Shown: positions 431-22,171 of the stretch, piece after piece
Position numbering within the stretch: position 1 is the stretch's first letter
Layout of the letters: every line of letters begins with the position of its first letter
Source: a virus
Direction: 5' to 3' (one strand)
IMG/VR virus record: IMGVR_UViG_3300047160_000628
Span: 1 to 37,623 of that record
DNA length: 37,623 nt
The notes under the pieces: generated by a model
What the model was told of the DNA's origin: nothing
What the model saw: only the letters and a program-made list of their open reading frames with translations
The model's database searches: none
Position numbers and translations under genes: made by a program

Positions 431-1002
431 GGTCGCTCGTCTCTTGGCGTGTCTGCGAGGGCGATCCCGAGGTCATCTATGGCCTCGCGCACGTCGTCAG
501 CCCTGAGCGTCACGCGACCCGGCTCTCCCGGCGTGTCTGCGAGGGCGGCGCGGAGAATGATGCGGGCATCCTCGTGGATGACGCAGAGACAGTGGCGACC
601 CTCTCTCTGCTCCCCGTGGTTGAGTGTGAGCATTGCTTCCAAGCCCTCGCGCAGCGCCGCCACCTGTGCCCGCAACGCCGTGAGTTCCGCGAGGATGTCG
701 GCGCGGTGGGTGCCGAACCATGCGATGGCGGCGGCGTCGGCCTTGCTGCGGAACCAGAAGCTGCCTAGGTAGTCGCCGGTCAGAAGAGCGTCGGACAACT
801 CAACGTCGGATCGAGCAGCGACCGGCTCGAAGGGGTGGTGAAACCAGTCGCTCATATCGACCTTCGGACCGTGGACGCTCTCGCCTTCCAGCGCAGCGCA
901 GATCGCATCGGCGAATTGGTGCCCGCAGAATACTGTCGGAGGCCACGGCCCCGGCGTCATCGCCACGTCGTGCTCGCGCAGCTTGTCGATGTCCACGGTC
1001 AT
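427..1002 (-). CDS. Hypothetical protein, possibly Ead/Ea22-like
   Basis: Track ORF 427..1068. The likely start is the ATG at 1002 (MTVDIDKLREH), which forms an ATGA overlap with the methyltransferase stop. The N-terminal AMTPGPW motif resembles Ea22-like phage proteins. Confidence 0.55.
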   Translation of the reverse strand: MTVDIDKLREHDVAMTPGPWPPTVFCGHQFADAICAALEGESVHGPKVDMSDWFHHPFEPVAARSDVELSDALLTGDYLGSFWFRSKADAAAIAWFGTHRADILAELTALRAQVAALREGLEAMLTLNHGEQREGRHCLCVIHEDARIILRAALADTPGEPGRVTLRADDVREAIDDLGIALADTPRDERP

Positions 1003-2069
1003 GCTGTCTCCTCGTCCCACAGTGACAACTGCGGGGATGGCGGGCGCCAGTCCATGCGCAGGTCCCACGTGCGCGGATCGGGCTGGCCCTTCGCCATCAC
1101 CACCACGTTCTGGTGGGACCGGCCTAACTTCCGGGACACCTCCATGGCGCGGGCTGCGCGCATCGGCAGCGTCCCGTACGGGTTGATGAGCACTGCGTCG
1201 TTGTACAGGCGCAGCCCGCAGTCCTGCATGGCCCGGATCGTGTCGCTGTGAAGGCCATAGTAGTGGCCCAAACGCCCGTGCTTGTCGCGCACGTCCGAGA
1301 CCACCATCACCATGAAGCGATCGTTCCGCAGCCGGTCCACGGCAGCCCGGATGATGTCCCGGTACGCCCCGAGGAAGTCAGCGTAGGTCGGTAGGTTCGA
1401 CAGGTCCCGTGGATCGTCGCTGTAGACCTCCAGATCGTAGTACGGCGGGCAGGTGAAGATCAGGTCGTACTGATCCGGCATCAGCGCCCCGACGTGGTCG
1501 GTCTGGTCCCCCAGCCGGGGCATCATGTCCAGACTGTCACCAGCGATCCAGTCGGGCGCCACCCCCAGCCGTTCGGCCTGTGCGCGGTTTGATGTCACCT
1601 GCTCCGCGCGCAGTTCGATGCCCACGTATCGATACCCGAGGTACTCGGCCACGATGCCCCGGACGCTGCCGCCAGCGAAGGGGTCGAGGATCGTGCCCCC
1701 CAGCGGGCACCACCAGCGATAGGCGCACTCGCACAGGACCGGATCGAAGATGCTGGTGCCGGGCGCCACGTTCTCCATCCCGAAGTCCGCATAATCCGGC
1801 AGGGGCGCTGCGCCCGTCAGATTGGACCGGGCGTCTGCCGCGCGCCTGCTGCCACCCCGCGCGGGCAGCCCCTCGAGTTGCATGGCAGCGGTCTTGGTGG
1901 TCAGCCCGCGCCCCAACTCCGACTCGATCCCCAGCGCCAGCCACGCCCGCCGTCGCGCCTGCCACTCGGCTGTGGTCGTGAACAAGGTGGATGTGGGCGG
2001 GACCACGAAGCGATCCGCCAGCGATGGGCGGGCCACCGGGATCTCCGCTGTGAATAGTCCGTCCGTCAC
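999..2069 (-). CDS. DNA methyltransferase (N6-adenine or N4-cytosine type)
   Basis: AdoMet-binding motif ILDPFAGGS is followed by the catalytic-type motif FTCPPYYD. The N-terminal WQARRRAWLALGIESELGRG is typical of phage DNA methylases. A GTG start at 2069 overlaps the upstream stop (GTGA). Confidence 0.75.
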   Translation of the reverse strand: MTDGLFTAEIPVARPSLADRFVVPPTSTLFTTTAEWQARRRAWLALGIESELGRGLTTKTAAMQLEGLPARGGSRRAADARSNLTGAAPLPDYADFGMENVAPGTSIFDPVLCECAYRWWCPLGGTILDPFAGGSVRGIVAEYLGYRYVGIELRAEQVTSNRAQAERLGVAPDWIAGDSLDMMPRLGDQTDHVGALMPDQYDLIFTCPPYYDLEVYSDDPRDLSNLPTYADFLGAYRDIIRAAVDRLRNDRFMVMVVSDVRDKHGRLGHYYGLHSDTIRAMQDCGLRLYNDAVLINPYGTLPMRAARAMEVSRKLGRSHQNVVVMAKGQPDPRTWDLRMDWRPPSPQLSLWDEETA

Positions 2070-2830
2070 TTCACCCTCCGCGCGACACTGGCCAGATTGC
2101 CTGCCAGCGCAGCCCTGATCACCCGCTCCACGACCACCGGGCGCTGCCGGTCGCTGTGTGGCCCGACGTACGCAGTACGCGGGCTCCAGATCACGCCCGG
2201 CAGGTCCGGGTCCTGCCCACCGTCCACGATGTACTCACGGATGGCGCCGTACCGCAGCCCCTCTGTCAGCGCCGGGCGGGACAGCAGACCGGGCCACGCG
2301 CCATTCACGATGGCCACCCCGTCCAGCGACGGAACGATCCCGTCCAGCCAGCCGGGGCCATCCGACAGGTGCAGGCTGATCACGTCAGCCGCCAGCATCG
2401 CGCCCTCGGCTGCCAGACTGTCATGGTGGACTGCCACGACCGGGCAGCGTGCCCGGCGCAGCATTCGATGCACCCGCCGTCCGACCCGGCCCAGCCCCAC
2501 CACGGCCACCAGACTGCCCACGGCAGGCGTGCGCGTGCCCCTGTACGCCCGTGCGATCTGCCGGACCGTCCACAGTGCCGTGTCATGGGTGGACCACATC
2601 TGGTGGGGCATCCAGACGGGGCTTTGCTCAATGTGGCTGGTCATCCGGGCGTGACTGCTGAGGCAGACGATGGGCGCGCCCGTGTCAGCCGGGCGGCTGT
2701 GCGTGGTCAGGACCAGATCAGGGCGCGTGCGCAGGGGCCGGAAGCGCGTATGGAGATCCACCTGCACGCCCAGTGCCCGGTATCTGTCCACGTCATCGGT
2801 GGTCAGCCGGTCGTACATTGCTACTCGCAT
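2066..2830 (-). CDS. D-isomer-specific 2-hydroxyacid dehydrogenase-like NAD-binding protein (divergent)
   Basis: Rossmann motif VAVVGLGRVGRRV. Also DVISLHL, IVNGAWPG (where the family has N-[TA]-A-R-G) and VGPHS near the C-terminus. Overlaps the PLP enzyme gene by 10 nt. Confidence 0.6.
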   Translation of the reverse strand: MRVAMYDRLTTDDVDRYRALGVQVDLHTRFRPLRTRPDLVLTTHSRPADTGAPIVCLSSHARMTSHIEQSPVWMPHQMWSTHDTALWTVRQIARAYRGTRTPAVGSLVAVVGLGRVGRRVHRMLRRARCPVVAVHHDSLAAEGAMLAADVISLHLSDGPGWLDGIVPSLDGVAIVNGAWPGLLSRPALTEGLRYGAIREYIVDGGQDPDLPGVIWSPRTAYVGPHSDRQRPVVVERVIRAALAGNLASVARRVK

Positions 2831-3600
2831 GGCTGGTCACCCAGTGGCTGGCCCACCGACCAGAAGAGCACCCTTGCGCCCATGTCGGCATGCGCACAGG
2901 CGATGCCCCATGCTGCGTGTTCGTAGCGCGGGTCTGACGGGAAGGGCGTGACCACGGGCGCCACGGGCAGGACCAACTCGAGCCTGCCTACCGTGTCCGG
3001 GGTCAGCAGCGCGCGCACCCTGTCCGCCGTATTCGCCCGGTTCATGGCGGGCACCCCGATGACGAAGCAGGCGCGGTCGTACCGCACCACCCCGATGGCC
3101 AGCGCAGCCGCGTACCCGCCTGATCCGACGCTGACGCAGTACACGTCGAAGTCATCAGGCACCTCGGCCACTGCCATGGCCGTGTGGTCCACGACCCCGG
3201 CTGTGGCGAAGCCCCACGGGATGTATTCGTACCCGCTGGTATCGGCCACGTGCCGGGCGTAGGCGCGCAGCGGCCCCAGATGACCGGGGCCGTGCAGGAA
3301 GACCGACGCGCCCAGATCAGCCGCCCGGCAGGTGTAGCCGTTCGGCTTGTAGGTATTCACGCAGGTGATCACGCCCACGCCCACCCTGCGCCCTGCGTAC
3401 GCAGCGATGGCGTGGGAATTAGATTGTGACGCCCCGGCATTCACCACGCCCCGTACGCCCTGATCGCGCAGGGCTGCCAGATACGGGATGACCCCGCGCA
3501 ACTTCCCATTCGGGAGGCCGGGGTCGTACTGGGACTCGTCCTTGACCCAGATGGGTCTGCCGCTGGGCGTACGGTACTTGCTGATTGGCGTCGCTGCCAT
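2821..3600 (-). CDS. PLP-dependent fold-type II enzyme, ACC deaminase / D-cysteine desulfhydrase family
   Basis: Motifs are VKDES...NGKLRG (compare the GNKxRK lysine motif), GASQSNSHAIAAYA (compare GGxQSNH) and the SVGSGG phosphate loop. The likely start is the ATG at 3600 (MAATPISKY), preceded by GAGGGGGA. The track ORF extends to 3702. Confidence 0.65.
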   Translation of the reverse strand: MAATPISKYRTPSGRPIWVKDESQYDPGLPNGKLRGVIPYLAALRDQGVRGVVNAGASQSNSHAIAAYAGRRVGVGVITCVNTYKPNGYTCRAADLGASVFLHGPGHLGPLRAYARHVADTSGYEYIPWGFATAGVVDHTAMAVAEVPDDFDVYCVSVGSGGYAAALAIGVVRYDRACFVIGVPAMNRANTADRVRALLTPDTVGRLELVLPVAPVVTPFPSDPRYEHAAWGIACAHADMGARVLFWSVGQPLGDQPCE

Positions 3601-3638
3601 CACGTCCCCCTCAGGACTTGGTGGTGAGGATAGGGCTA

Positions 3639-3707
3639 GGTCCCGCCTGCCGTCATCAGCAGACGGGACCAGATAGCCCGTCAGGATACTGCGGGGCGCC
3701 ACCCCGC
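3639..3707 (-). terminator. Two GC-rich hairpins downstream of the 3714 gene; candidate factor-independent terminator without a U-tract
   Basis: Hairpin 3639..3670 has 12-bp arms (ggtcccgcctgc / gcagacgggacc) with one wobble and an 8-nt loop. Hairpin 3691..3707 is gcgggg-cgcca-ccccgc. Confidence 0.4.
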
Positions 3708-3713
3708 GTGCGG

Positions 3714-4586
3714 TCAGTCAGCGGCTGCCACTGCCGCGCCCGGCAGGCTGGCCGCTTCGGGGTCTTCCGGCATGATCGCCTTGGGCTTGCGGGTCCGGGG
3801 CGCTGCTGCCTTCTTGGCTGCGTCCTTGCGGACTGCTGCCCGTGCGGCCTCGGCGGCTGCGGCCTTCGTGCCCTTGCGCGGGGTCTTGGGGGCTGCCGTC
3901 GCCTTGGGTGCCTTCGGGGTCTTGGCCGCTGGCGTGGCCTTGGCCTTCGGGGTGCCCGCTGCCGGACGCTGGTCCGCCGTGGCATTCAGGTACCCGACGT
4001 ACACCGGGCGGCAGGTCTTGCACATGCGGGCCAGCCCGTCCGCGTGCGCCTTGTTCGAGTTGAACTGCGTGATCGGGGCGCTGTGCTTCTGCACGGGCGC
4101 GGTACCGGGCGCTGCCGGGGTGCCGGGGCAGTACTTGTACTCCTGCCCGCCGTCGATGAAGTGGCCGCTGGCCAGCGTCGTGGTATCGGTCATCTGAGTG
4201 GTCTCCTTCGTGTCCGTGGTGGGGGTGGTGCGCGTCTTGCGCGGGGCGGGGGTCGTGGTGGTGATCGTCGGCTCATCCGTCTCCTTGTCGAATGTGATGT
4301 GGGCTGCCTTGATGGCCTTGGCGAGGCAGGGCGCCCATTCCACGACAGCCGTGGACCATGCGCGCTCGTAGCGCTCGGCCTCGGGCAGGTACGGGGCCAT
4401 CCCGAACCAGTCGGCCATGTCCGTGTCCGCCGTGCGGATCGCGTCCAGCAGGTCCGTACCCGTGTACGTCACAGGCTCCCGACCTGACCGGGCGGACCAG
4501 CGGGCACCCTTCTTCAGGTCCGCGCAGCCTGCCACGTGCATCTGGAAGTCGCCCCGCTGGGTCTCGGTCAGTGTTAGTGCGGTCAT
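3714..4586 (-). CDS. Putative DNA-binding protein with a zinc-ribbon-like motif and a histone-H1/HU-like Lys/Ala/Pro tail
   Basis: The likely start is the ATG at 4586 (MTALTLTE), with AGGAGA 6 nt upstream. Features are a Thr-rich linker, KYCPG...DGLARMCKTCRP, and the C-terminal tail PKAKATPAAKTPKAPKATAAPKTPRKGTKAAA...AAKKAAAPRTRKPKA. Confidence 0.5.
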   Translation of the reverse strand: MTALTLTETQRGDFQMHVAGCADLKKGARWSARSGREPVTYTGTDLLDAIRTADTDMADWFGMAPYLPEAERYERAWSTAVVEWAPCLAKAIKAAHITFDKETDEPTITTTTPAPRKTRTTPTTDTKETTQMTDTTTLASGHFIDGGQEYKYCPGTPAAPGTAPVQKHSAPITQFNSNKAHADGLARMCKTCRPVYVGYLNATADQRPAAGTPKAKATPAAKTPKAPKATAAPKTPRKGTKAAAAEAARAAVRKDAAKKAAAPRTRKPKAIMPEDPEAASLPGAAVAAAD

Positions 4587-4668
4587 CTCAGGTCTCCTGT
4601 CGCTGCTCGGCGTCGCTGCCGATGACCGAAACAATCGGTGCTCGGCAGCGACTTGTCAAGCAGGACCT
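4587..4668 (-). promoter_or_regulatory. Early-region regulatory cassette 1: promoter-like hexamers, a hairpin and a CAGCGAC x2 leader
   Basis: In minus sense: TTGACA (4659..4654), 18 nt, ATTGTT (4635..4630). An 11-bp perfect inverted repeat (4612..4622 / 4642..4652) plus inner stem ACCGA/TCGGT places TTGTT in the apical loop. This is followed by CAGCGAC-gccgag-CAGCGACAGGAGA, 6 nt, then ATG. Confidence 0.55.
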
Positions 4669-4848
4669 TCAGCCCAGTACGATCAGTTCTGCGACCCCGA
4701 AGGCGAGGGCGCACTGCATGCCCCACAGGCGCACCAGCACGGTCCCGCTGGCGCCCTGTGCCCGGATGTCAGTGACCACGCCCCTGCGCCCGGCATAGGC
4801 GGTCTGGTGCGACCCTGACACCCGGACGATGCTGCCGACCCGGATCAT
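4669..4848 (-). CDS. Small hypothetical protein (59 aa), possibly a KOW/SH3-like beta protein
   Basis: Not in the track, being one residue below the 60-aa cutoff. ATG at 4848 forms an ATGA overlap with the upstream stop. The hand-translated, GC3-rich frame is MIRVGSIVRVSGSHQTAYAGRRGVVTDIRAQGASGTVLVRLWGMQCALAFGVAELIVLG, ending in TGA at 4669. Confidence 0.65.
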   Translation of the reverse strand: MIRVGSIVRVSGSHQTAYAGRRGVVTDIRAQGASGTVLVRLWGMQCALAFGVAELIVLG

Positions 4849-5624
4849 CGCCCGGACCCGATCTGGCGCGTCCCCACGCCCACCTGCGTCTGGCCCAGAT
4901 CAGCCCGGTTCGCAGCGTCGCGCCCCAGCGTCGCGCCCACTGCGTCCGCGCTGTACCCGCGCGCCTTGCCCAGTTCCGGGAAGCGCGCCACGCGGGCTGC
5001 CTCCACGATGGTGTCCCGCTGGACCAGCAGGGCGCTGGCATTCGGGACCGTGGCCACGACCTGCGTCTCGAGTTCGCGCAGCCGCTGCCCGATCCGGGTG
5101 GCGTAGCCCACCAGATACCCGGTCAGGAACTTGGACTTGCCGGTCCCGGTCAGGGCGCCGTATCGCTTCCAGTCCGCCTGCCCGAAGTGCATGCCCTGTG
5201 TCAGCAGGCTGGTCCACAGGACCTTGGCCGCTGCGATGTCGGACGGGAAGCCGATCATCACGCCCCAGCGCTCGCGCTCGGTATGCTCGCGGGTGCTGCC
5301 GGACCTGCGCCCGGTCCAGTAATAGTTCCGGGTGCCGTACATGAAGAACTGCACGTGGCAGGCGCGGGCCACGTGGCCCATCAGGGCGCCCCGCCCGACA
5401 GCGTTCTTGCCGTCCGGGGCGTACATCACGTCCTCGATGCTGGGATCATCGGCTGCGGTCCGGGCGCCATGTGCCTGTCGGGCGGCTGCCTCGTCGATGC
5501 TGTGGCGCAGCATGAGTTCATGCGCCTTGGCGAGGAAGGCATCGGCCTCGTGCTCGTTATCGGTCCCCTCGGCCTTCGCCAGCAGGGCACCGATCTTGCG
5601 CATCGTGTCGTCGGGGGTGGCCAT
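4845..5624 (-). CDS. Hypothetical protein with a DUF2786-like N-terminus
   Basis: Track ORF. The N-terminus MRKIGALLAKAEGTDNEHEADAFLAKAHELMLRHSI matches the DUF2786 pattern common in phages. GGGAGA lies 8 nt upstream of the ATG. Confidence 0.6.
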   Translation of the reverse strand: MATPDDTMRKIGALLAKAEGTDNEHEADAFLAKAHELMLRHSIDEAAARQAHGARTAADDPSIEDVMYAPDGKNAVGRGALMGHVARACHVQFFMYGTRNYYWTGRRSGSTREHTERERWGVMIGFPSDIAAAKVLWTSLLTQGMHFGQADWKRYGALTGTGKSKFLTGYLVGYATRIGQRLRELETQVVATVPNASALLVQRDTIVEAARVARFPELGKARGYSADAVGATLGRDAANRADLGQTQVGVGTRQIGSGR

Positions 5625-5725
5625 CGTGTCATCTCCCTGTCGCTGTCGCGCCCGCCGTCGCTGTGGTGGGCTGCTGGGACGAACACTAGCGAGTGCCCGC
5701 CCCAGCCGTCAAGCAGTACTTCGGG
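5625..5725 (-). promoter_or_regulatory. Early-region regulatory cassette 2
   Basis: In minus sense: GAAGTACTGC-TTGACG (5712..5707), 18 nt, TAGTGT (5688..5683). The flanking inverted repeat is gctggg/cccagc (5673..5706). This is followed by CAGCGAC, 11 nt, CAGCGACAGGGAGATGAC, then ATG at 5624. Confidence 0.5.
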
Positions 5726-6141: not shown

Positions 6142-6972
6142 TCAGATGCCGAAGCCCCGCCCCGAGCAGATGGGGCCGATCCCCGCTGCGATGCTGGACT
6201 CGTCTGTCAGGGTCCGCCCGCACACGCAGCAGACCCCGTACAGCCGCCCGAAGGCCTGTGCGTCCTCGAGGGACATCTTGTCGGCTGCCGTCAGCCGGGT
6301 GATCGCGCCCGGTGCGTACTCGAACGAGCCCGTCCTGCTGGCCTCGTCCACGACCAGCCGCTTGGCGTACAGATTGCCCGATCCATTGACCGCCCGCTGA
6401 ACCTTCCAGATCGTGCCGTCAGCGGTCTTGTACATGCCGTCCGCATCGACGCGGGCTGCGGGACGCCACGCCTGCGCCTGCTGGACGGGTTGAGCCGGGC
6501 GAGCGACCCATGCCCGGTACTGATCGTCGGCAGCGATCTCGCGGGCGATCTGGGCGGCCTCAGCGCGCTGTGCGTCGCGCGCCTTGCCGGTCAGCAGGGC
6601 ATCCACCTGTCGGTCCGTCAGGTGCAGCCACTTGGTGCCCCAGCGGCTGTCAGCGCGGATGTCCAGCGGCAGACCCCATGTGCCCGTGTATGCGGCCACG
6701 TACGCGATGGCTTCGGCATGTCGCGCGCTGGCTACTGGGTTGGCGACGCCCGTTCCGGTGGATGTGCGCGGGGCCACGTCGCTGTCATCAGCGGGCGCTG
6801 CGGTCCAGCCGAGGCGATCATAGTACTCGCGGTACGTGACGCCATGCTTGTCGAGGAACTCTTGGTCGATGTCCGCATCGGCCATCGCGCGCCCGGCCTT
6901 GGTCGTCAGGTCCACGAGGCGACGCCCGCCCCCGCTGTGCCCGCTGGTGATGTACTTCTGTGTCATCGTCAT
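6142..6972 (-). CDS. Hypothetical protein with a DUF6011-like C-terminal Cys motif
   Basis: Track ORF 6142..7029. The start is the ATG at 6972 or, better spaced from GGGAG, the ATG at 6966 (MTQKYITSG). The C-terminus GRLYGVCCVCGRTLTDESSIAAGIGPICSGR matches the CxxCGRxLT...GIGPxC motif seen in phage proteins. Confidence 0.6.
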   Translation of the reverse strand: MTMTQKYITSGHSGGGRRLVDLTTKAGRAMADADIDQEFLDKHGVTYREYYDRLGWTAAPADDSDVAPRTSTGTGVANPVASARHAEAIAYVAAYTGTWGLPLDIRADSRWGTKWLHLTDRQVDALLTGKARDAQRAEAAQIAREIAADDQYRAWVARPAQPVQQAQAWRPAARVDADGMYKTADGTIWKVQRAVNGSGNLYAKRLVVDEASRTGSFEYAPGAITRLTAADKMSLEDAQAFGRLYGVCCVCGRTLTDESSIAAGIGPICSGRGFGI

Positions 6973-7048
6973 CTCCCTGTCGCTGCCGGGGTCGCTGTCC
7001 CGATGTGCGAACAATCGCCCCGGCAGCACAGGCTGTCAAGCAGTACTT
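6973..7048 (-). promoter_or_regulatory. Early-region regulatory cassette 3
   Basis: In minus sense: GAAGTACTGC-TTGACA (7039..7034), 18 nt, ATTGTT (7015..7010). The inverted repeat is ctgccgggg (6983..6991) / ccccggcag (7018..7026), with an inner GCG/CGC stem around the ATTGTT loop. This is followed by CAGCGAC-cccgg-CAGCGACAGGGAGATGAC. Confidence 0.55.
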
Positions 7049-7339
7049 CTAGGTCCAGTCCTCGCGTGGCGTCAGGTGCAGGGGCGTGCCGGGCCAGTAC
7101 CAGACGCGCCCGACAGGGGGCAGCGTCAGCAGGGTGTCAGCGATGGACTGGAGTCTGTGGGTCTGGTAATCCAGCAGCCCGTCCGGGGCGCCTGCCAGTG
7201 CGACCTGCGCCCGGCTGATGTGGACCAGCGCCATGGCCATCTGGTCCGCCAGATCGGGGTCCCAGCCGTGGGCCTCGAGCCTGCGTCGCAGGGTCTGGGT
7301 GGTCTGGGCGTGGAGGGGCGGGTCCTGCTGCGCTGTCAT
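7049..7339 (-). CDS. Hypothetical protein (96 aa)
   Basis: C-terminal part of track ORF 7049..7765. ATG at 7339 (MTAQQDPPLH) forms an ATGA overlap with the stop of the upstream gene at 7336. Confidence 0.55.
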   Translation of the reverse strand: MTAQQDPPLHAQTTQTLRRRLEAHGWDPDLADQMAMALVHISRAQVALAGAPDGLLDYQTHRLQSIADTLLTLPPVGRVWYWPGTPLHLTPREDWT

Positions 7340-7566
7340 CGTCGTGCCGCCATCCGCTCGCGGGCGGCAGCCTGTGCCTGCGCAGACCAGCGGGTGTACG
7401 CCTCGTCGATGGGCAGGTACAGGTCGGACATCAGGGTGTCGGCCACCCCGCGCAGTCCGACCTCCTCGCACAGGCGGATGACCCGCCTGAGCGCGTGCAT
7501 GTCGTTCAGGGCGTCGGATCGACGGTTGGCGTCCGCCATGTCGCGCCCGGTGGGGTCTGCTGTCAT
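7336..7566 (-). CDS. Hypothetical protein (76 aa)
   Basis: Track ORF 7336..7680. The likely start is the ATG at 7566 (MTADPTGRD), preceded by AAGGAGAA. Confidence 0.55.
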   Translation of the reverse strand: MTADPTGRDMADANRRSDALNDMHALRRVIRLCEEVGLRGVADTLMSDLYLPIDEAYTRWSAQAQAAARERMAARR

Positions 7567-7601
7567 CGTGGGTTCTCCTTGCTGGGGGTGCCGTGGGTCC
7601 A

Positions 7602-7814
7602 TCAGCGGGACCGGGCACTGCGCTCGCGTGCCCGCAGCAGGGTGTACACGCGATCCCGTGCCGCATCCAGTGCTGGCCAATCAGACTCGGGCACGAGCCA
7701 GCGGACCTGCACGCGGGCGTCCGTGACCACGAGGCCATCAGCCGTCCACCGGGTGGTGGCGCCATCGCGCTCGATGTACCACGCGAGCTGCTCGAGTGTC
7801 GCTGTCATCCCCAT
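7602..7814 (-). CDS. Hypothetical protein (70 aa)
   Basis: Track ORF. AGGAG lies 7 nt upstream of the ATG at 7814. Confidence 0.55.
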   Translation of the reverse strand: MGMTATLEQLAWYIERDGATTRWTADGLVVTDARVQVRWLVPESDWPALDAARDRVYTLLRARERSARSR

Positions 7815-7902
7815 CTGTCATCTCCTATCGCTGCCGGGCGTCGCTGCCCGCTGAGCGAACACTAGCGCCTCGTCAGCGGGCGTCAAGCACATTCTTAGTA
7901 CG
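7815..7902 (-). promoter_or_regulatory. Early-region regulatory cassette 4
   Basis: In minus sense: TTGACG (7886..7881), 16 nt, TAGTGT (7864..7859). The inverted repeat is cccgctga (7847..7854) / tcagcggg (7873..7880), with an inner GCG/CGC stem and the loop holding TAGTGTT. This is followed by CAGCGAC-gcccgg-CAGCGATAGGAGATGAC. Confidence 0.5.
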
Positions 7903-8340
7903 TCAGTCCCACCCGGCGTGACCACAGTAGTACAGGTCCCAGCCCCGATCACCACGGGGCGTGTAGGGGTGCCCGTCCCGGCGCAGCCGTCGCCCGGTGT
8001 GCGGGTGAATGTCCGCGTGCGTGTAGTCCACCATGCCACAGGTGGCGCACATGGCGGCAGACGCTGATCCGGGACCGCAGTACTCGAAGAAGGCGAGGCC
8101 CAGACTGGACGGGCGCTCGTCAGTGCCGTGGCAGCGGGCCACGCGCCCGGTCAGGTCCACCGGGCGGCTGATCAGGCACGCCCCGCTGTCGATCCCGAAG
8201 TCCATCGGGCAGGCCGGGTGATCGACCCCCAGCCCGTGGTGGTCCTGATGGTGGATCGCTGCCGGGGTGTGCCCGCAGCGCATCAGGGGTCGTGTAGACT
8301 GCTGATCCGGGATCGGTCCGGGCAGTTGATGCGTAGTCAT
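7903..8340 (-). CDS. Cys/His-rich hypothetical protein (145 aa), probably metal-binding
   Basis: Track ORF with an ATGA overlap to the upstream gene. It has 8 Cys and 12 His, including RCGHTP, HPACP, RCHGTDE, MCATCG and YYCGH. I do not recognise the family. Confidence 0.5.
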   Translation of the reverse strand: MTTHQLPGPIPDQQSTRPLMRCGHTPAAIHHQDHHGLGVDHPACPMDFGIDSGACLISRPVDLTGRVARCHGTDERPSSLGLAFFEYCGPGSASAAMCATCGMVDYTHADIHPHTGRRLRRDGHPYTPRGDRGWDLYYCGHAGWD

Positions 8341-17602: not shown

Positions 17603-18312
17603 CAGACCGATGCCACCTGTAGGCCGATCTTGAAGTCAGCGATGAAGTCCCGCGCCTCGGGCGGCAGTTGGCTGTACTGCTGGACCGCCCCGCTGGGGGT
17701 GATCGCCACGTCAGCGAGGATCGATCCCGGACGCTCGGTGTAGAAGGCGGACAGTACCTTGACCGCCTGAAGGAACGTGTCGGGCTCCTCGCCCGGCGCC
17801 CAGCCCGCAGACCCCTTGATGTACAGGTCGTTGGGCATCGAGGTCCATGCGTACCCGCCCCCTCGATTGCCGGGGAAGAAGGGACTGTCGAGCAACTTGT
17901 CATACCACAGCGGGTCCGACAGCCACCATGGCGCGTCACTGTCGGCACGCCATGCCCGGAACTGGAGTGCCACGTAGGTCCCGGACATCAGATCGTCTGG
18001 GATGGCCCAGCAGGACGTATTGGGATCGGTGCTGCTGAAGCCCACGGACATGGTGGCGCCACCCCACGTCACGGTATCGAAGGTGCGGAAGCCGGGGATC
18101 GGCACCTGCGCCCGGATCATCGTCGTGGTCCGGTACACGAAGTCCGACACGTCCACCAACTTACGATGCGTCTCGAACTCGAGCTTGGACTGCGCAGCGC
18201 GGATGTTGGAGCCAATGGTCTCGTCGCTGTACCGGCTACTGCTGGGCGGGGTATTCAGTGACATGTAGTCACGCACCTGCGTGGGCGTCACCACCATGGC
18301 CATCTGGCTCAC
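17602..18312 (-). CDS. Head-tail connector (gp6-like adaptor) protein
   Basis: The N-terminus VTPTQVRDYMSLN...SDETIGSNIRAAQSKLEFETHRKL resembles the phage gp6-like connector pattern. It is the first structural gene after the glycosylation cassette, joined by a GTGA overlap. Confidence 0.5.
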   Translation of the reverse strand: MSQMAMVVTPTQVRDYMSLNTPPSSSRYSDETIGSNIRAAQSKLEFETHRKLVDVSDFVYRTTTMIRAQVPIPGFRTFDTVTWGGATMSVGFSSTDPNTSCWAIPDDLMSGTYVALQFRAWRADSDAPWWLSDPLWYDKLLDSPFFPGNRGGGYAWTSMPNDLYIKGSAGWAPGEEPDTFLQAVKVLSAFYTERPGSILADVAITPSGAVQQYSQLPPEARDFIADFKIGLQVASV

Positions 18313-19574
18313 GCTGCCGCCTCCGCCTCAGCCGGGTCCACGATGGCCTGCATCTGCTGGGCAGCCACCGACCACCGGAAGTTCCGCTGGACGTGCAGCA
18401 GCCCGGCCTTGCCCCGCACGCCCAGTTCGTGCTTGTTCTTGATGATCCAGTGCAGCGTGGTGGCGTACTGCTTCTGGTCTGGCGACGCCCACCAGTGGCT
18501 GTACACATTCTCAACGAGGTAGCCCACCGGCACGGTCCAGCCACCGGGACCGATCACCTCGGGCACACTGCTGAAGTCCAGCCCCACGACCGGGGTCCCG
18601 CACGCCATGGCCTCGGCAATGGTCAGCCCGAAGCCCTCGGCTGATGTGCTGACGTACAGGTCCGCTGCCGCGTACATGATGCGCAGAATGCTACGCGGGA
18701 CCCCACCGAACTCATCATGCAGCCCCGTGCTATTCATGCGGTCTGCGATGGGCTGCGGATACTTGCTGCGCTCGTCCAGCAGGTCCCCGCCCTGATCCAC
18801 GGACAGACAGTGCCAGATCAGGCGGGCGCGCGGGAAGACCTCGAGTACCGGGGCGACGGCACGCAGCAAGGCCGGGTATTGCTTGCGGGGCATGTGCCGG
18901 TCCGCGCGGAACATGATGAAGTCATCCTGTGGCCAGCCGAGGAACTTGCGCGCCTCGGCGCGACTGCGGATCACCACGTCCCGCGTGATCGTGCCATCTG
19001 GCCGGGCGCGCCCCACCAGCCGCACAGGCGAGATCTCGTTGATCGGCTTGAAGTCGGTGGTGTTCACCCCGTGATAGACCACGGGCGGGCGCCGTCCCGT
19101 CAACCGCTCGATCTCGCCCGCCCCGAAGTCGCACATGGCGACGGGCTGCACCCTGTCAAAGACTGCCTTCCACGATGGCGGCAGCCCGATCCCCTCGACC
19201 GGGACGTAGAAGTACGTAGGGTGACCCTCGGGCAGGATGGGCAGGATCGGGGACATCTTCAGCGACGCCACGTCCCCGACGATCAGGGTGGCGTCAGGCT
19301 TCCAGCCGTCCTCGAACAGCCCGCCCTCGAACATGGACTTCAGCCTGTCGCGGGTCTGGGGCAGCGACGCCTCGTCCAGCGCCAGCCACCCGGTCTTCTC
19401 GCCCAGCAGCGCGGTCCGGTCACGGAAGGGCGCGGGCAGACCGTCACGGGTGGGCGCCTCGTTCATCGACAGGAAGCGGATGTCCATGCCCAGCGCCAGC
19501 ATCTCGGCGCCCAGATCGATGGTCACGGTCCCGAAGCCGGTCCCACCCATGTCCCCGCAGAACAGCAGCCTCAT
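18309..19574 (-). CDS. GT-B fold glycosyltransferase (GT4 / Glycos_transf_1-like)
   Basis: The motif STSAEGFGLTIAEAMACGTPVVGLDFSSVPEVI is the E-x7-E region typical of GT4 enzymes. ATGA overlap with the upstream gene. Confidence 0.75.
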   Translation of the reverse strand: MRLLFCGDMGGTGFGTVTIDLGAEMLALGMDIRFLSMNEAPTRDGLPAPFRDRTALLGEKTGWLALDEASLPQTRDRLKSMFEGGLFEDGWKPDATLIVGDVASLKMSPILPILPEGHPTYFYVPVEGIGLPPSWKAVFDRVQPVAMCDFGAGEIERLTGRRPPVVYHGVNTTDFKPINEISPVRLVGRARPDGTITRDVVIRSRAEARKFLGWPQDDFIMFRADRHMPRKQYPALLRAVAPVLEVFPRARLIWHCLSVDQGGDLLDERSKYPQPIADRMNSTGLHDEFGGVPRSILRIMYAAADLYVSTSAEGFGLTIAEAMACGTPVVGLDFSSVPEVIGPGGWTVPVGYLVENVYSHWWASPDQKQYATTLHWIIKNKHELGVRGKAGLLHVQRNFRWSVAAQQMQAIVDPAEAEAAA

Positions 19575-20212
19575 GCCAGCGCCGCCATGCGCGCGTCCCA
19601 GCGCGCCCGATCCCGCTCGATCATCGGCTGGAGATCATCGGCTGCCTTCATGTACGACTGCGCCAGCAGATGCCAGACCGGCAGCCCATTGACCCGGATC
19701 ACCGACAGCCCCGCCACCCGCACATCATGCTCGAACTGATCGTCTCCGTACCACCACTGGTACCCCTCGTCGAAGCGGATGGGCAGATCGGACCGGATGG
19801 CGAAGGCAAAGCCGGTCATCCCGTCGTGACCCTGCGCGCCCCATGTCCCGCGCACCTCGGTGTAGGTGCCATCGGTCTGGTAGTCCATGTCGAAGGGCAC
19901 GGACGTATCCGGGCATGACACGCCCACGCGGGGATCAGTCAGCGGAGCGATCAGGGCGTGGATCGCGCCCGGTGGCAGCACCACGTCATCATTCAGCACG
20001 ACCGTGTACCGGGCGCGGTAGACATCACGGGCGATCTGGCAGCCCGTATTCCAGAGGCGGTAGATGGACCAGTCAGGGCCACGGTCGAAGGCATCCGGCA
20101 CCAGCACGACCTGCACCCCGTCCAGACGCAGGGTGGACACCAGCCCTAGCAGCGGGTCGGACTGGTAGCGCGTCGGGATCACGGCTGCGATGGTCACGGC
20201 TGGCCCACCCAT
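19571..20212 (-). CDS. GT-A fold glycosyltransferase (GT2-like)
   Basis: The N-terminus is IAAVIPTRY, and VVLNDDVV is DxD-like. An alternative GTG start at 20197 would give a GTGA overlap with the upstream stop. Confidence 0.6.
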   Translation of the reverse strand: MGGPAVTIAAVIPTRYQSDPLLGLVSTLRLDGVQVVLVPDAFDRGPDWSIYRLWNTGCQIARDVYRARYTVVLNDDVVLPPGAIHALIAPLTDPRVGVSCPDTSVPFDMDYQTDGTYTEVRGTWGAQGHDGMTGFAFAIRSDLPIRFDEGYQWWYGDDQFEHDVRVAGLSVIRVNGLPVWHLLAQSYMKAADDLQPMIERDRARWDARMAALA

Positions 20213-20814
20213 GCGACTGGCATTCCGAACTCACGGGCAGCCGCCTCGGCCTTGAAGGCGCCCAGTGCGTACCCATGGTGCGGATTGTCACCCGTCAGGG
20301 TACCGTCATCCAGCACCGTCCGCGTGTCCCCGGACAGGTACGAGTCCATGCCGACCAGAACGACCTCCGTGCAGCCGATGGCCTGCGCCAGCCGGACAGC
20401 CACCTCGGCTGACATGCTGTACCACGGGATGCCGAAGTCCTCGACCACGATCCGCACCGGATCATACGCCTCGAGGCAGTAGTTCGCCTCCTCGCGGGAC
20501 ACGACCGCGATCTCGTCCGGGGCGGGCGTGATCAGCGCGCATTCGTGACCGGGACCGGGCGGGTGCCACGTCGGGTCATCCCACCTGTGCCCCTGACAGC
20601 CGTCCTTCTGCATGCTGACGATCCGGTACGCAGCCACCAGCGGGCGCACGTGGATGACCGCCCGATTCAGCGTGATGACAGGACCCCAGCCCCAGCCCAT
20701 GAAGGTGTCCTTCGTGACCGCCAGCAGGCTGGGGCCACGGCCCACCACGTAGGCTGGCCTGTCCCGGAAGCGGGACTTGAGTTCGCGCAGGGGATCGGCC
20801 ACCACAGCGATCAC
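20194..20814 (-). CDS. MptE-like / DUF115 (Maf-type glycosyltransferase-like) protein
   Basis: The motifs AYVVGRGPSLL (compare GxGPSL) and VVLVGMDSY (compare the GxD motif) fit the DUF115/Maf family. The likely start is GTG at 20814 (GTGA overlap); the track ORF extends to 20877. Confidence 0.45.
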   Translation of the reverse strand: MIAVVADPLRELKSRFRDRPAYVVGRGPSLLAVTKDTFMGWGWGPVITLNRAVIHVRPLVAAYRIVSMQKDGCQGHRWDDPTWHPPGPGHECALITPAPDEIAVVSREEANYCLEAYDPVRIVVEDFGIPWYSMSAEVAVRLAQAIGCTEVVLVGMDSYLSGDTRTVLDDGTLTGDNPHHGYALGAFKAEAAAREFGMPVAWVGQP

Positions 20815-21539
20815 CTGACCGCTTCCTCGAAGCCAGACCACTTCCACTGCGTGATCTGGCCCGTATCGAACTCCCACTCGGGATTGGCGTGCAGCAGGTC
20901 CAACACATCCTGTGTGGTCACGTCCGGCCAGCGCTTGGACAGGCGCGCCATGATCCGCCTGTGCAGGGCCAGATCAGCCGCATGGTCGATGGTCAGCCGA
21001 TGGTGGGACTCGTCCGGGACCGTGGACAGCACCCTGACCGGGTACTCCTTCGGGCGCCTGTCCCAGAACGCCCCGGTGTGCTCGCGCTCCTCGGTCGTGG
21101 TGGCGTGACGATTCGCCATGTCCAGCGCCCAGCGGGTCACGGCCCATGCGTGCAGTCCGTACGGCTGGCCCGTGGTCCGGGCATAGACCGCCCCGTCGTG
21201 GACGGCATCGAGCACCTGCCGGATCGTATCCGGGTCCATCAGCGGCTGGTCTGCCCCGAGAAAGGCGATGGCCTGCACGTCGTGATAGAAAGCCGCCAGC
21301 CACACCCGGTGCACCACGTCATTGACCGGGCCACGGACCACACTGGCGCCCGCCGATGACGCCACGTGGCCCACGGCAGTATCAGCCGGGTCCCACGTCG
21401 TGGCGACGATCACAGGGGCAACTTTCTTCAGGCGGGACACCTGCCATGCCAGCAGCGGCTGCCCCACCACCTCCGCCAGCGTCTTGCCGGGCAGTCGGTG
21501 CGACCCCTGCCGCGCCTGAATGATGATGGCCTCCTTCAT
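20811..21539 (-). CDS. SpsF/NeuA-family cytidylyltransferase (CTP_transf_3-like nucleotide-sugar synthetase)
   Basis: The N-terminus MKEAIIIQARQGSHRLPGKTL is followed by TEEREHTGAFW and HRLTIDHAADLALHRRI, which resemble the EHVT and RLTVD..D motifs of SpsF-like enzymes. ATG at 21539 gives an ATGA overlap. Confidence 0.7.
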   Translation of the reverse strand: MKEAIIIQARQGSHRLPGKTLAEVVGQPLLAWQVSRLKKVAPVIVATTWDPADTAVGHVASSAGASVVRGPVNDVVHRVWLAAFYHDVQAIAFLGADQPLMDPDTIRQVLDAVHDGAVYARTTGQPYGLHAWAVTRWALDMANRHATTTEEREHTGAFWDRRPKEYPVRVLSTVPDESHHRLTIDHAADLALHRRIMARLSKRWPDVTTQDVLDLLHANPEWEFDTGQITQWKWSGFEEAVR

Positions 21540-22171
21540 CCGACCCCAGCCTCGATCCGGCTGTACAGGCGCGTGGACTCCTCGGCAATGGCCTCGTACT
21601 TGCTGTGGATCAGATACGCAGACCGGGGCGCCTTCGGCAGCCATGGGGTCCCGCGCGTCAGCGCCTCGGGCACCCCGTCCAGCATCACCTGCTCGTGGAC
21701 CGGCTTGTACCAGACGCCAGCCTTGCGCCTGAATAGGCGGCAGTGCCAGTGCTCCTCGTATTCGTCACCCTGATGTCCGTCGAAGTAGTTCTGCGTGAAG
21801 TACAGGTACCCACGCGGGGCCGGGTAGCCCGTCCCCTGCCAGCGCACGTCCTGCTGCACCGGGTCCTGCGTCACCAGCCGGATGTGCTCCATCATCGCCA
21901 CGGACGGCACTTCGTCCGGGTCCAGATGCAGCACCCAGTCCCCGGTGGCCACCGGGATGGCGGCATTCCGGGCTGTGGCGAAGTCATCCACCCACGTGAA
22001 GGGGACCAGCACCGTGTCCCGCCACTGCTCCATGATGCTGACCGCCTCGGGCAGCGTCCGGTCATCGACCACAATCACGGTCTGCTGCACGAACGGGCGG
22101 ATGTACTCCACCAGCGCTGTCAGCCGGTCGATGGGTGGGTCCTTGACGAGGAACGCTGCCGAGACGGTCAT
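21536..22171 (-). CDS. GT-A fold glycosyltransferase (GT2-like)
   Basis: Motifs are VSAAFLVKDPP, TVIVVDDRT, WVDDFATARNAA and GDWVLHLDPDE. It starts 18 nt after the capsid gene stop, preceded by CAGCGACAGGTGA. Confidence 0.7.
   Translation of the reverse strand: MTVSAAFLVKDPPIDRLTALVEYIRPFVQQTVIVVDDRTLPEAVSIMEQWRDTVLVPFTWVDDFATARNAAIPVATGDWVLHLDPDEVPSVAMMEHIRLVTQDPVQQDVRWQGTGYPAPRGYLYFTQNYFDGHQGDEYEEHWHCRLFRRKAGVWYKPVHEQVMLDGVPEALTRGTPWLPKAPRSAYLIHSKYEAIAEESTRLYSRIEAGVG

Follow-up and report, generated by a model that had tools for sequence, protein, structure and literature searches.

The locus described here raises the question why a phage of 37,623 bp encodes a pyridoxal-phosphate (PLP)-dependent enzyme together with a protein that resembles a D-2-hydroxyacid dehydrogenase, and why the genes of both are coupled to that of a DNA methyltransferase. 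The window, i.e., the whole stretch of DNA that was analysed, is the IMG/VR virus record IMGVR_UViG_3300047160_000628 at its full length of 37,623 bp, which is complete, has direct terminal repeats and a GC content of approximately 67%. The three genes form a trio on the minus strand, where all features named in the following with coordinates of the window also lie. It begins with the gene of a PLP fold-type II protein of 259 amino acids (aa) at 2821..3600, which has a fold like that of 1-aminocyclopropane-1-carboxylate (ACC) deaminase and D-cysteine desulfhydrase and belongs to a phage family related to gp52 of phage M6. It is followed by the gene of a protein of 254 aa with the fold of the D-2-hydroxyacid dehydrogenases and an isoelectric point (pI) of 10.65 at 2066..2830, hereafter the Rossmann protein, and by that of a DNA amino-methyltransferase of 356 aa at 999..2069, which belongs to a clade of phage ParB-terminase loci. 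A preliminary description of the sequence had left several functions side by side, among them an auxiliary metabolic module and a route to a precursor of glycans or of DNA modification. The PLP protein is akin to gp52 and is accompanied by a basic, eroded look-alike of a dehydrogenase, and so a DNA-modification module is likelier than a metabolic add-on. Of the earlier options we therefore favour DNA modification, and both the metabolic module and the glycan route are disfavoured. Our leading interpretation, to which we give about an even chance, is that the trio constitutes a single, translationally coupled unit for the modification of phage DNA, and that the PLP protein and its basic partner support the methyltransferase in it.

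Three translationally coupled genes

The three open reading frames (ORFs), both of their overlaps and every motif quoted in the preliminary description are present in the sequence, and the proposed translational coupling is borne out by overlaps of two kinds. The stop codon of the Rossmann gene and the start codon of the methyltransferase gene share a GTGA (2066..2069, read directly) within AAGTGACG, where GGAGGG is located 6-8 nt upstream. At the junction of the PLP and Rossmann genes (CCATGCGAGTAGCA) the Rossmann ATG overlaps the PLP stop by 10 nt (2821..2830, ATGCGAGTAG, likewise read directly), and both overlaps are accompanied by a Shine-Dalgarno sequence. The Rossmann ATG fits the N-termini MRVA.YDRL of the Rossmann family in our alignment A2. 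Across the three ORFs the GC content is 0.82-0.87 at third and approximately 0.5 at second codon positions, which is coding-like. The ATG of the PLP gene at 3600 has the Shine-Dalgarno sequence GAGGGGGA in front of it, and the protein-collection record P0001 (259 aa) starts from it as well; the longest PLP ORF begins at GTG 3702 and gives a form of 293 aa. Between the PLP start and the upstream gene at 3714..4634 lies a structured spacer of 113 nt with two hairpins (3601..3713), the fold of which has -59.9 kcal/mol with a z of -3.9 and was equalled by 0 of 200 shuffled sequences. These hairpins may mark the trio off as a separate regulatory or processing unit, and this stretch would be coding if GTG 3702 were the real start. 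A search for sigma-70 promoter and T-tailed terminator consensus sequences around the trio found none.

The PLP protein and its relation to gp52

In its 259-aa form the PLP protein contains the motifs NGKLRG with Lys33 (aa 31-36; 3493-3510), SQSNSH as part of GASQSNSH (aa 56-63; 3412-3435) and the phosphate loop SVGSGG (aa 157-162; 3115-3132), as well as SDPRYEHAAW (2908-2937). PF00291 (PALP) matches aa 37-220 of the 293-aa form with 54.5 bits, the cut-off being 35. Lys33 aligns to the Schiff-base lysine of IlvA (in “SFKLRG”) and to Lys36 of gp52, and it is invariant in alignment A1, which contains 10 relatives of 243-278 aa that all keep Lys33, SNSH and the GxGG loop. The same 10 relatives share a C-terminal block, PFPSDPRYE..AW...FWSVG, in which the motif DPxY[E/D]..AW is kept. 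An AlphaFold model, for which 38 sequences were used, has a predicted local distance difference test score (pLDDT) of 95.7, and in a Foldseek search it is most similar to the ACC-deaminase homolog 1j0a with a template modeling (TM) score of 0.84, followed by the D-cysteine desulfhydrase 4d8w of Salmonella (TM 0.80) and by threonine deaminases; fold-type II enzymes make up all of the top 50 PDB matches. With the PF00291 match, the aligned lysine and a model that best matches 1j0a and then D-cysteine desulfhydrase, the earlier assignment of the protein to this fold and its affinity to this subfamily stand. Judged from motifs and model, the enzyme is apparently catalytically competent.

Like PH0054 (1j0a) and 4d8w, the PLP protein has a lysine motif of the GG.K.R type, the SN motif and the glycine loop, and a DPxY is present in it; it is shorter by approximately 70 residues. 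It also scores far below every cut-off of the NCBIfam equivalogs for threonine dehydratases, EutB, D-cysteine desulfhydrase and ACC deaminase, e.g., 21 bits vs. 289 for TIGR01275 and 17-19 bits vs. 429-469 for the D-cysteine desulfhydrase models. The Tyr and Glu of its DPxY-type motif SDPRYE may be the equivalents of Tyr294 and Glu295 of ACC deaminase.

The profile of alignment A1, i.e., of the window's own PLP clade, has its best-scoring characterised match in M6 gp52, which it covers end to end (positions 2-247) with 61 bits, whereas its best PDB match reaches 51 bits over two thirds of the profile only. For gp52 of the Pseudomonas phage M6 and gp226 of the Salmonella phage ViI it was shown that they are PLP-dependent decarboxylases, the substrates of which are amino acids coupled to thymine in DNA (Lee et al., 2021, PMC8989533). 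Like the PLP protein of the window, both are short phage proteins of PLP fold-type II, and gp52 shares with the window clade the C-terminal motifs PFP.[DN]P.Y[DE]..AW ... FW.[VI]G, with Lys36 as the family lysine. However, the identity between gp52 and the PLP protein is low, and the neighbours of the latter are, unlike those of gp52, an amino-methyltransferase and a protein like the 2-hydroxyacid dehydrogenases. Among the phage protein families, phrog_7093 (E 1.7e-7, 32 bits) and phrog_3650 match the PLP protein; phrog_7093 scores 530 bits with gp52, 189 bits with the sister clade described below and 58 bits with a PLP homolog on the metagenome contig L083.

PLP genes beside and within DNA methylase genes

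A scan of viral contigs with peptide patterns revealed 104 contigs that encode PLP relatives of approximately 30% identity, which form the sister clade “GGTKARF”. Two PLP peptide patterns gave 0 matches in genome_contigs, a collection of 185,579 species with a single genome each, and the metagenome scan with the PLP pattern gave a single locus, L083, so that the PLP family was found here only on viral and metagenomic contigs. All locus counts for the “GGTKARF” clade refer to the 80 viral loci that were retrieved. In approximately 70 of these, a methyltransferase gene homologous to that of the window (E 1e-68 to 1e-85) is immediately followed downstream by the PLP gene, usually with an overlap of 4 nt, and a gene for a ParB-domain protein is present upstream. 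The Microcystis phage Mae-JY30 has this arrangement, too.

Even closer is the connection in the Pseudanabaena phage Pam4, where the PLP domain of gp70 (L086, 2050-4539) lies nested in the methylase, between its motifs I and IV, and for the Erythrobacter phages R6L and ZS04 a match in two pieces points to a nested fusion of the same kind. In the record of Pam4, no more than “pyridoxal-phosphate dependent enzyme” is given for this gene, and the corresponding genes of R6L and ZS04 are annotated as DNA methylases. Long PLP ORFs at five further loci (L031, L037, L048, L063 and L064), which overlap the methylase in another frame, are probably over-extended ORFs and not fusions. The core of methylase and PLP protein is thus present in cultured phages (Pam4, R6L/ZS04 and Mae-JY30), which have the methylase family and the PLP superfamily in common with the window. 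However, the PLP protein of the window belongs to a distinct clade, its gene lies upstream of the methyltransferase gene instead of downstream or nested, and there is a third, co-inherited gene, that of the Rossmann protein, which is missing from all 80 “GGTKARF” loci.

A basic partner with the fold of a dehydrogenase

The Rossmann protein had been described as of the D-2-hydroxyacid dehydrogenase type, and this is confirmed at the level of the fold. Its dinucleotide loop GLGRVG is located at aa 112-117 (2480-2497). PF02826 matches with 27.4 bits against a cut-off of 25.1, although over 38 residues only (aa 103-140), and the family member of L083 matches both PF02826 and PF00389. The model (pLDDT 92.2) has the two domains of a D-2-hydroxyacid dehydrogenase and, in Foldseek, matches the whole of CtBP, PHGDH, D-LDH, GhrA and McyI at TM 0.62-0.77. 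The Rossmann protein thus shares with CtBP1/2, PHGDH, D-LDH, GhrA and McyI the two-domain fold and the GxGxxG loop, of which the first two glycines are invariant across its family. However, the family members have approximately 250 aa as compared to approximately 320 aa in the D-isomer-specific 2-hydroxyacid dehydrogenases, they have a median pI of 10, and the loop that carries Glu295 in CtBP1 is deleted from the entire family.

The family profile from alignment A2 matches CtBP1 with 59 bits, and in this match “NsAR” corresponds to Arg266 and “TPHtAW” to His315. The window has NGAWPG (aa 176-181; 2288-2305) with Trp179 in the column of the catalytic Arg, as had been noticed before. The loss is not confined to Arg but includes the catalytic His, which is replaced by Arg218 in SPRTAY (2168-2185), as well as the Glu loop. 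Of the 18 aligned members, 11 have the Arg, 14 have the His and nine have both. The sequence VGPH (aa 222-225), which had been read as a hallmark of the dehydrogenases, was mis-assigned. It is not the catalytic-His motif, since the “TPHxAW” of the family aligns to His315 of CtBP1 and the window reads SPRTAY there; VGPH lies just past this motif in the “GxRS” stretch of the family.

An exhaustive HMMER search revealed 21 relatives of the Rossmann protein with 224-284 aa. A word-indexed homolog search found nothing beyond the protein itself, tblastn against phages gave no match, and scans of viral_contigs (A2, A3, A5) and of genome_contigs for the Rossmann family found nothing. The nearest neighbour by features in the ESM Atlas (score 0.93) is a mostly viral cluster of 102 members with approximately 291 aa, which are 2-hydroxyacid-dehydrogenase-like. 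Phage-encoded members of the dehydrogenase fold may thus be more common than the 21 HMMER relatives.

The family is strongly basic: 15 of 16 aligned members have a pI of approximately 9 or more. In the proteome of the phage the median pI is 6.1, and 4 of 30 proteins exceed a pI of 10. This degree of basicity is not what one would expect of a metabolic dehydrogenase. Within the PLP proteins, the methylase-linked clade is basic (pI 9.75), and the clade that is paired with the Rossmann protein is not (pI 8.2).

Co-inheritance of the PLP and Rossmann genes

The pairing of PLP and dehydrogenase-like genes recurs outside this genome. On the metagenome contig L083 (1-9927) the Rossmann ORF (6402-7193) overlaps the start of the PLP homolog (7163-8026), with the gene order reversed as compared to the window, i.e., Rossmann and then PLP. 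There the pair is part of a replication module with a Toprim primase, a DnaB-like helicase and a clamp-like protein. Four further pairs of PLP and Rossmann homologs are located on contigs that agree in size, source and count, namely 5741 bp (JGI), 5709 bp, 19578 bp and 80588 bp (all Logan), and two pairs of methylase and Rossmann homologs are matched likewise (25895 and 2185 bp). In 5 of 5 pairs the identity to the window declines in the same order for the PLP and the Rossmann protein. A gene of the Rossmann family was found in 0 of the 80 “GGTKARF” loci. Since the two genes co-occur in L083 and in the matched pairs, and since none of the “GGTKARF” loci has a Rossmann gene, the Rossmann protein is a specific partner of the PLP clade with “NGKLRG”. 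As far as these sequences can tell, it nearly always accompanies a PLP gene of the window type and can be regarded as its co-inherited partner.

Literature searches found no description of a trio of methylase, PLP and dehydrogenase-like proteins or of a co-inherited dehydrogenase-like partner. What appears to be new is therefore the distinct PLP clade together with a co-inherited, basic partner of the 2-hydroxyacid-dehydrogenase fold, in which the catalytic residues are variably lost. A structural search of BFVD returned just an 810-aa fusion and distant matches.

The methyltransferase

The methyltransferase matches PF01555, the profile of the N6/N4 DNA amino-methyltransferases (38.1 bits vs. 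a cut-off of 26.7), phrog_12517 (302 bits) and phrog_498 (222 bits). Motif I, DPFAGGS (aa 129; 1665-1685), precedes motif IV, CPPYYD (CPPY at aa 207; 1434-1451), and this order is permuted relative to the beta-class structure 2zie, to which homology is found in both halves. The motif order fits the unpermuted clade of the ParB-terminase loci of Iyer et al. The methylases of these loci have been predicted to modify the DNA of phages at packaging (Iyer, Zhang & Aravind, 2016, PMC4738411). One of their enzymes, gp36 of the Enterococcus phage phiFL3A, shares with the window 43% identity, motif I before motif IV, and CPPY. However, unlike the enzymes of ParB-terminase loci, the methyltransferase of the window has no ParB_N domain, is not located beside the terminase and is coupled to the pair of PLP and dehydrogenase-like genes. 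Within ParB-like proteins, its aa 10-66 match the C-terminal portion alone (phrog_15396, positions 157-213), and a search of the whole genome for a ParB_N domain (PF02195) gave no match at E <= 0.1. The terminase gene is 26 kb away from the methyltransferase gene, which is found at the genome's distal end. Conservation of CPPY and DPFAGGS extends over 61 homologs at the loci, and that of CPPY over 110 of the 120 nearest relatives. CPPY was considered as a signature of PLP-linked chemistry and dropped, since methylases without such a partner carry it too.

Possible function of the trio

For the substrate, the chemistry, a physical complex and the biological role of the trio we infer the following. 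The core enzyme would be the amino-methyltransferase of the clade known from phage ParB-terminase loci. The PLP enzyme would act on a group of the alpha-amino-acid type, which may either be located on the DNA or be derived from the cofactor of the methyltransferase, S-adenosylmethionine (SAM). The dehydrogenase-like partner, which keeps the dinucleotide loop, would bind nicotinamide adenine dinucleotide or its phosphate (NAD(P)(H)) and/or DNA. It could hold the PLP enzyme on its substrate or, in those family members that have both Arg and His, could reduce a carbonyl that is produced in the PLP step. As a result, the phage DNA would be modified and would withstand restriction by the host. To our knowledge, phage PLP enzymes with an action on DNA are known from the pathway of 5-hydroxymethyl-uracil only. 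Here, a PLP enzyme of the same kind is tied instead to an amino-methyltransferase and to a basic, partly inactivated protein of the dehydrogenase fold. A non-methyl mark made by the trio would represent a new route of hypermodification and a new chemistry against restriction; without such a mark, the trio would be an example of a metabolic dehydrogenase fold that was recruited as a non-catalytic or re-purposed partner. A more specific version, which we regard as quite improbable, is that the enzyme with the methyltransferase fold puts the aminocarboxypropyl-type part of SAM instead of a methyl group on a DNA base, and that the gp52-like PLP protein and the partner, which would bind NAD(P) and cling to the DNA, remodel the tethered amino acid while it is on the DNA, by decarboxylation or by deamination and subsequent reduction. 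If true, the phage DNA would carry a hypermodification of a new class, for which 5-hydroxymethyl-deoxyuridine (5-hmdU) is not the starting point.

Several observations weigh against the reading of the trio as a DNA-modification unit. The methyltransferase belongs to a huge family of at least 7,946 proteins at E <= 1e-30, and CPPY is also present in phiFL3A gp36, which is without a PLP partner, as well as in Pam4 gp70 with its nested PLP domain. Since members without a PLP partner have CPPY, the methyltransferase of the window may simply methylate, and since the motif is family-wide, no sequence mark sets this enzyme apart from a plain methyltransferase. The match of the PLP protein to phrog_7093, with its 32 bits, is no stronger than the generic similarity to PALP and threonine dehydratases. 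Homologs of the M6 ORFs that flank gp52 were found neither in the window nor in the more than 80 loci; these ORFs we take, by gene order, to be the place of gp51, gp53 and gp54. Moreover, the annotation of the rest of the phage contains no genes of the hmdU pathway, and none of the domains of the gp52 pathway (deoxyuridine monophosphate hydroxymethylase, 5-hmdU DNA kinase, aGPT-Pplase, radical SAM) was found in it. Since the partners of gp52 that install the amino acid are absent, none of the known routes to an amino acid on DNA is present here. On L083, no recognisable methyltransferase was found within the 9.9 kb of the contig. The pairings on the six other contigs derive from matching records and not from sequence. 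Finally, the basicity of the Rossmann protein is only suggestive of DNA binding.

Among the alternatives to a DNA-modification unit, the one closest to the preliminary description is a pair that acts on free metabolites independently of the methyltransferase: the PLP enzyme would deaminate or desulfhydrate ACC, D-cysteine, serine or threonine to a 2-oxo acid and ammonia, and the dehydrogenase would reduce the acid with NAD(P)H. The structural neighbours of the PLP protein, the ACC-deaminase homolog 1j0a and D-cysteine desulfhydrase, are in line with this, as are the complete 2-hydroxyacid-dehydrogenase fold of the partner with its GxGxxG loop, the conserved pairing, its occurrence on L083 without an adjacent methylase, and the half of the family (9 of 18 members) in which Arg and His are both kept. 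We nevertheless consider such an auxiliary module of 2-oxo and 2-hydroxy acids unlikely, as in the window Trp has replaced Arg and Arg has replaced His, the Glu loop is gone family-wide and the Rossmann family is strongly basic. In addition, the pattern scan of genome_contigs did not find the PLP family, all NCBIfam equivalogs remain far under their cut-offs (TIGR01275 with 21 of 289 bits), and the best-scoring characterised relative of the PLP protein acts on DNA, while the sister clade is tied to a DNA methylase.

This tie to a SAM-dependent methylase, in which the PLP domain can even be nested, would also agree with a housekeeping of the cofactor. In this case, the PLP enzyme would degrade or convert the amino-acid end of S-adenosylhomocysteine (SAH) or SAM, e.g., by an elimination of SAH that relieves product inhibition and releases 2-oxobutyrate, and the partner would dispose of the oxo acid or help to bind the nucleotide. 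The closest cellular fold has ACC as its substrate, which is derived from SAM, and the original logic of an oxo acid that is converted to a hydroxy acid would still hold. However, some methylases of the family manage without such a helper, e.g., phiFL3A gp36, the catalytic residues of the partner are eroded in the window, and neither the basic pI nor the DNA-directed activity of gp52 would be explained, so that we assign this scenario a clearly low probability. Least probable by far, and hardly to be expected, is a supply of precursors for the virion glycosylation cassette at 18309-21644. The phage does encode a family 1 glycosyltransferase (GT1) and a CTP_transf_3 cytidylyltransferase, but the pair is located approximately 15 kb from this cassette, its neighbours elsewhere are methylases or replication genes and not sugar genes, and sugar aminotransferases use a different PLP fold.

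Genomic setting

With genes called by the GC content of their codon positions, the minus strand of the window holds all genes but one, and a megablast search of the region 900-5700 against the phage collection gave no match. The gene just upstream of the trio (3714-4634) encodes a basic protein of 306 aa with a pI of 9.5, which has weak matches to Lar-like and endonuclease PHROGs around a Cys-containing segment. It ends in a long C-terminal tail that is rich in Lys, Ala and Pro and resembles histone H1, and the protein may be a DNA binder. Between the tail genes and the trio, a DUF2786/DUF7168 protein and a DUF6011 protein are encoded at 4845-5624 and 6142-7029, respectively. GT1 and CTP_transf_3 are encoded in the structural module (18309-21644), where they form a cassette of the virion-glycosylation type.

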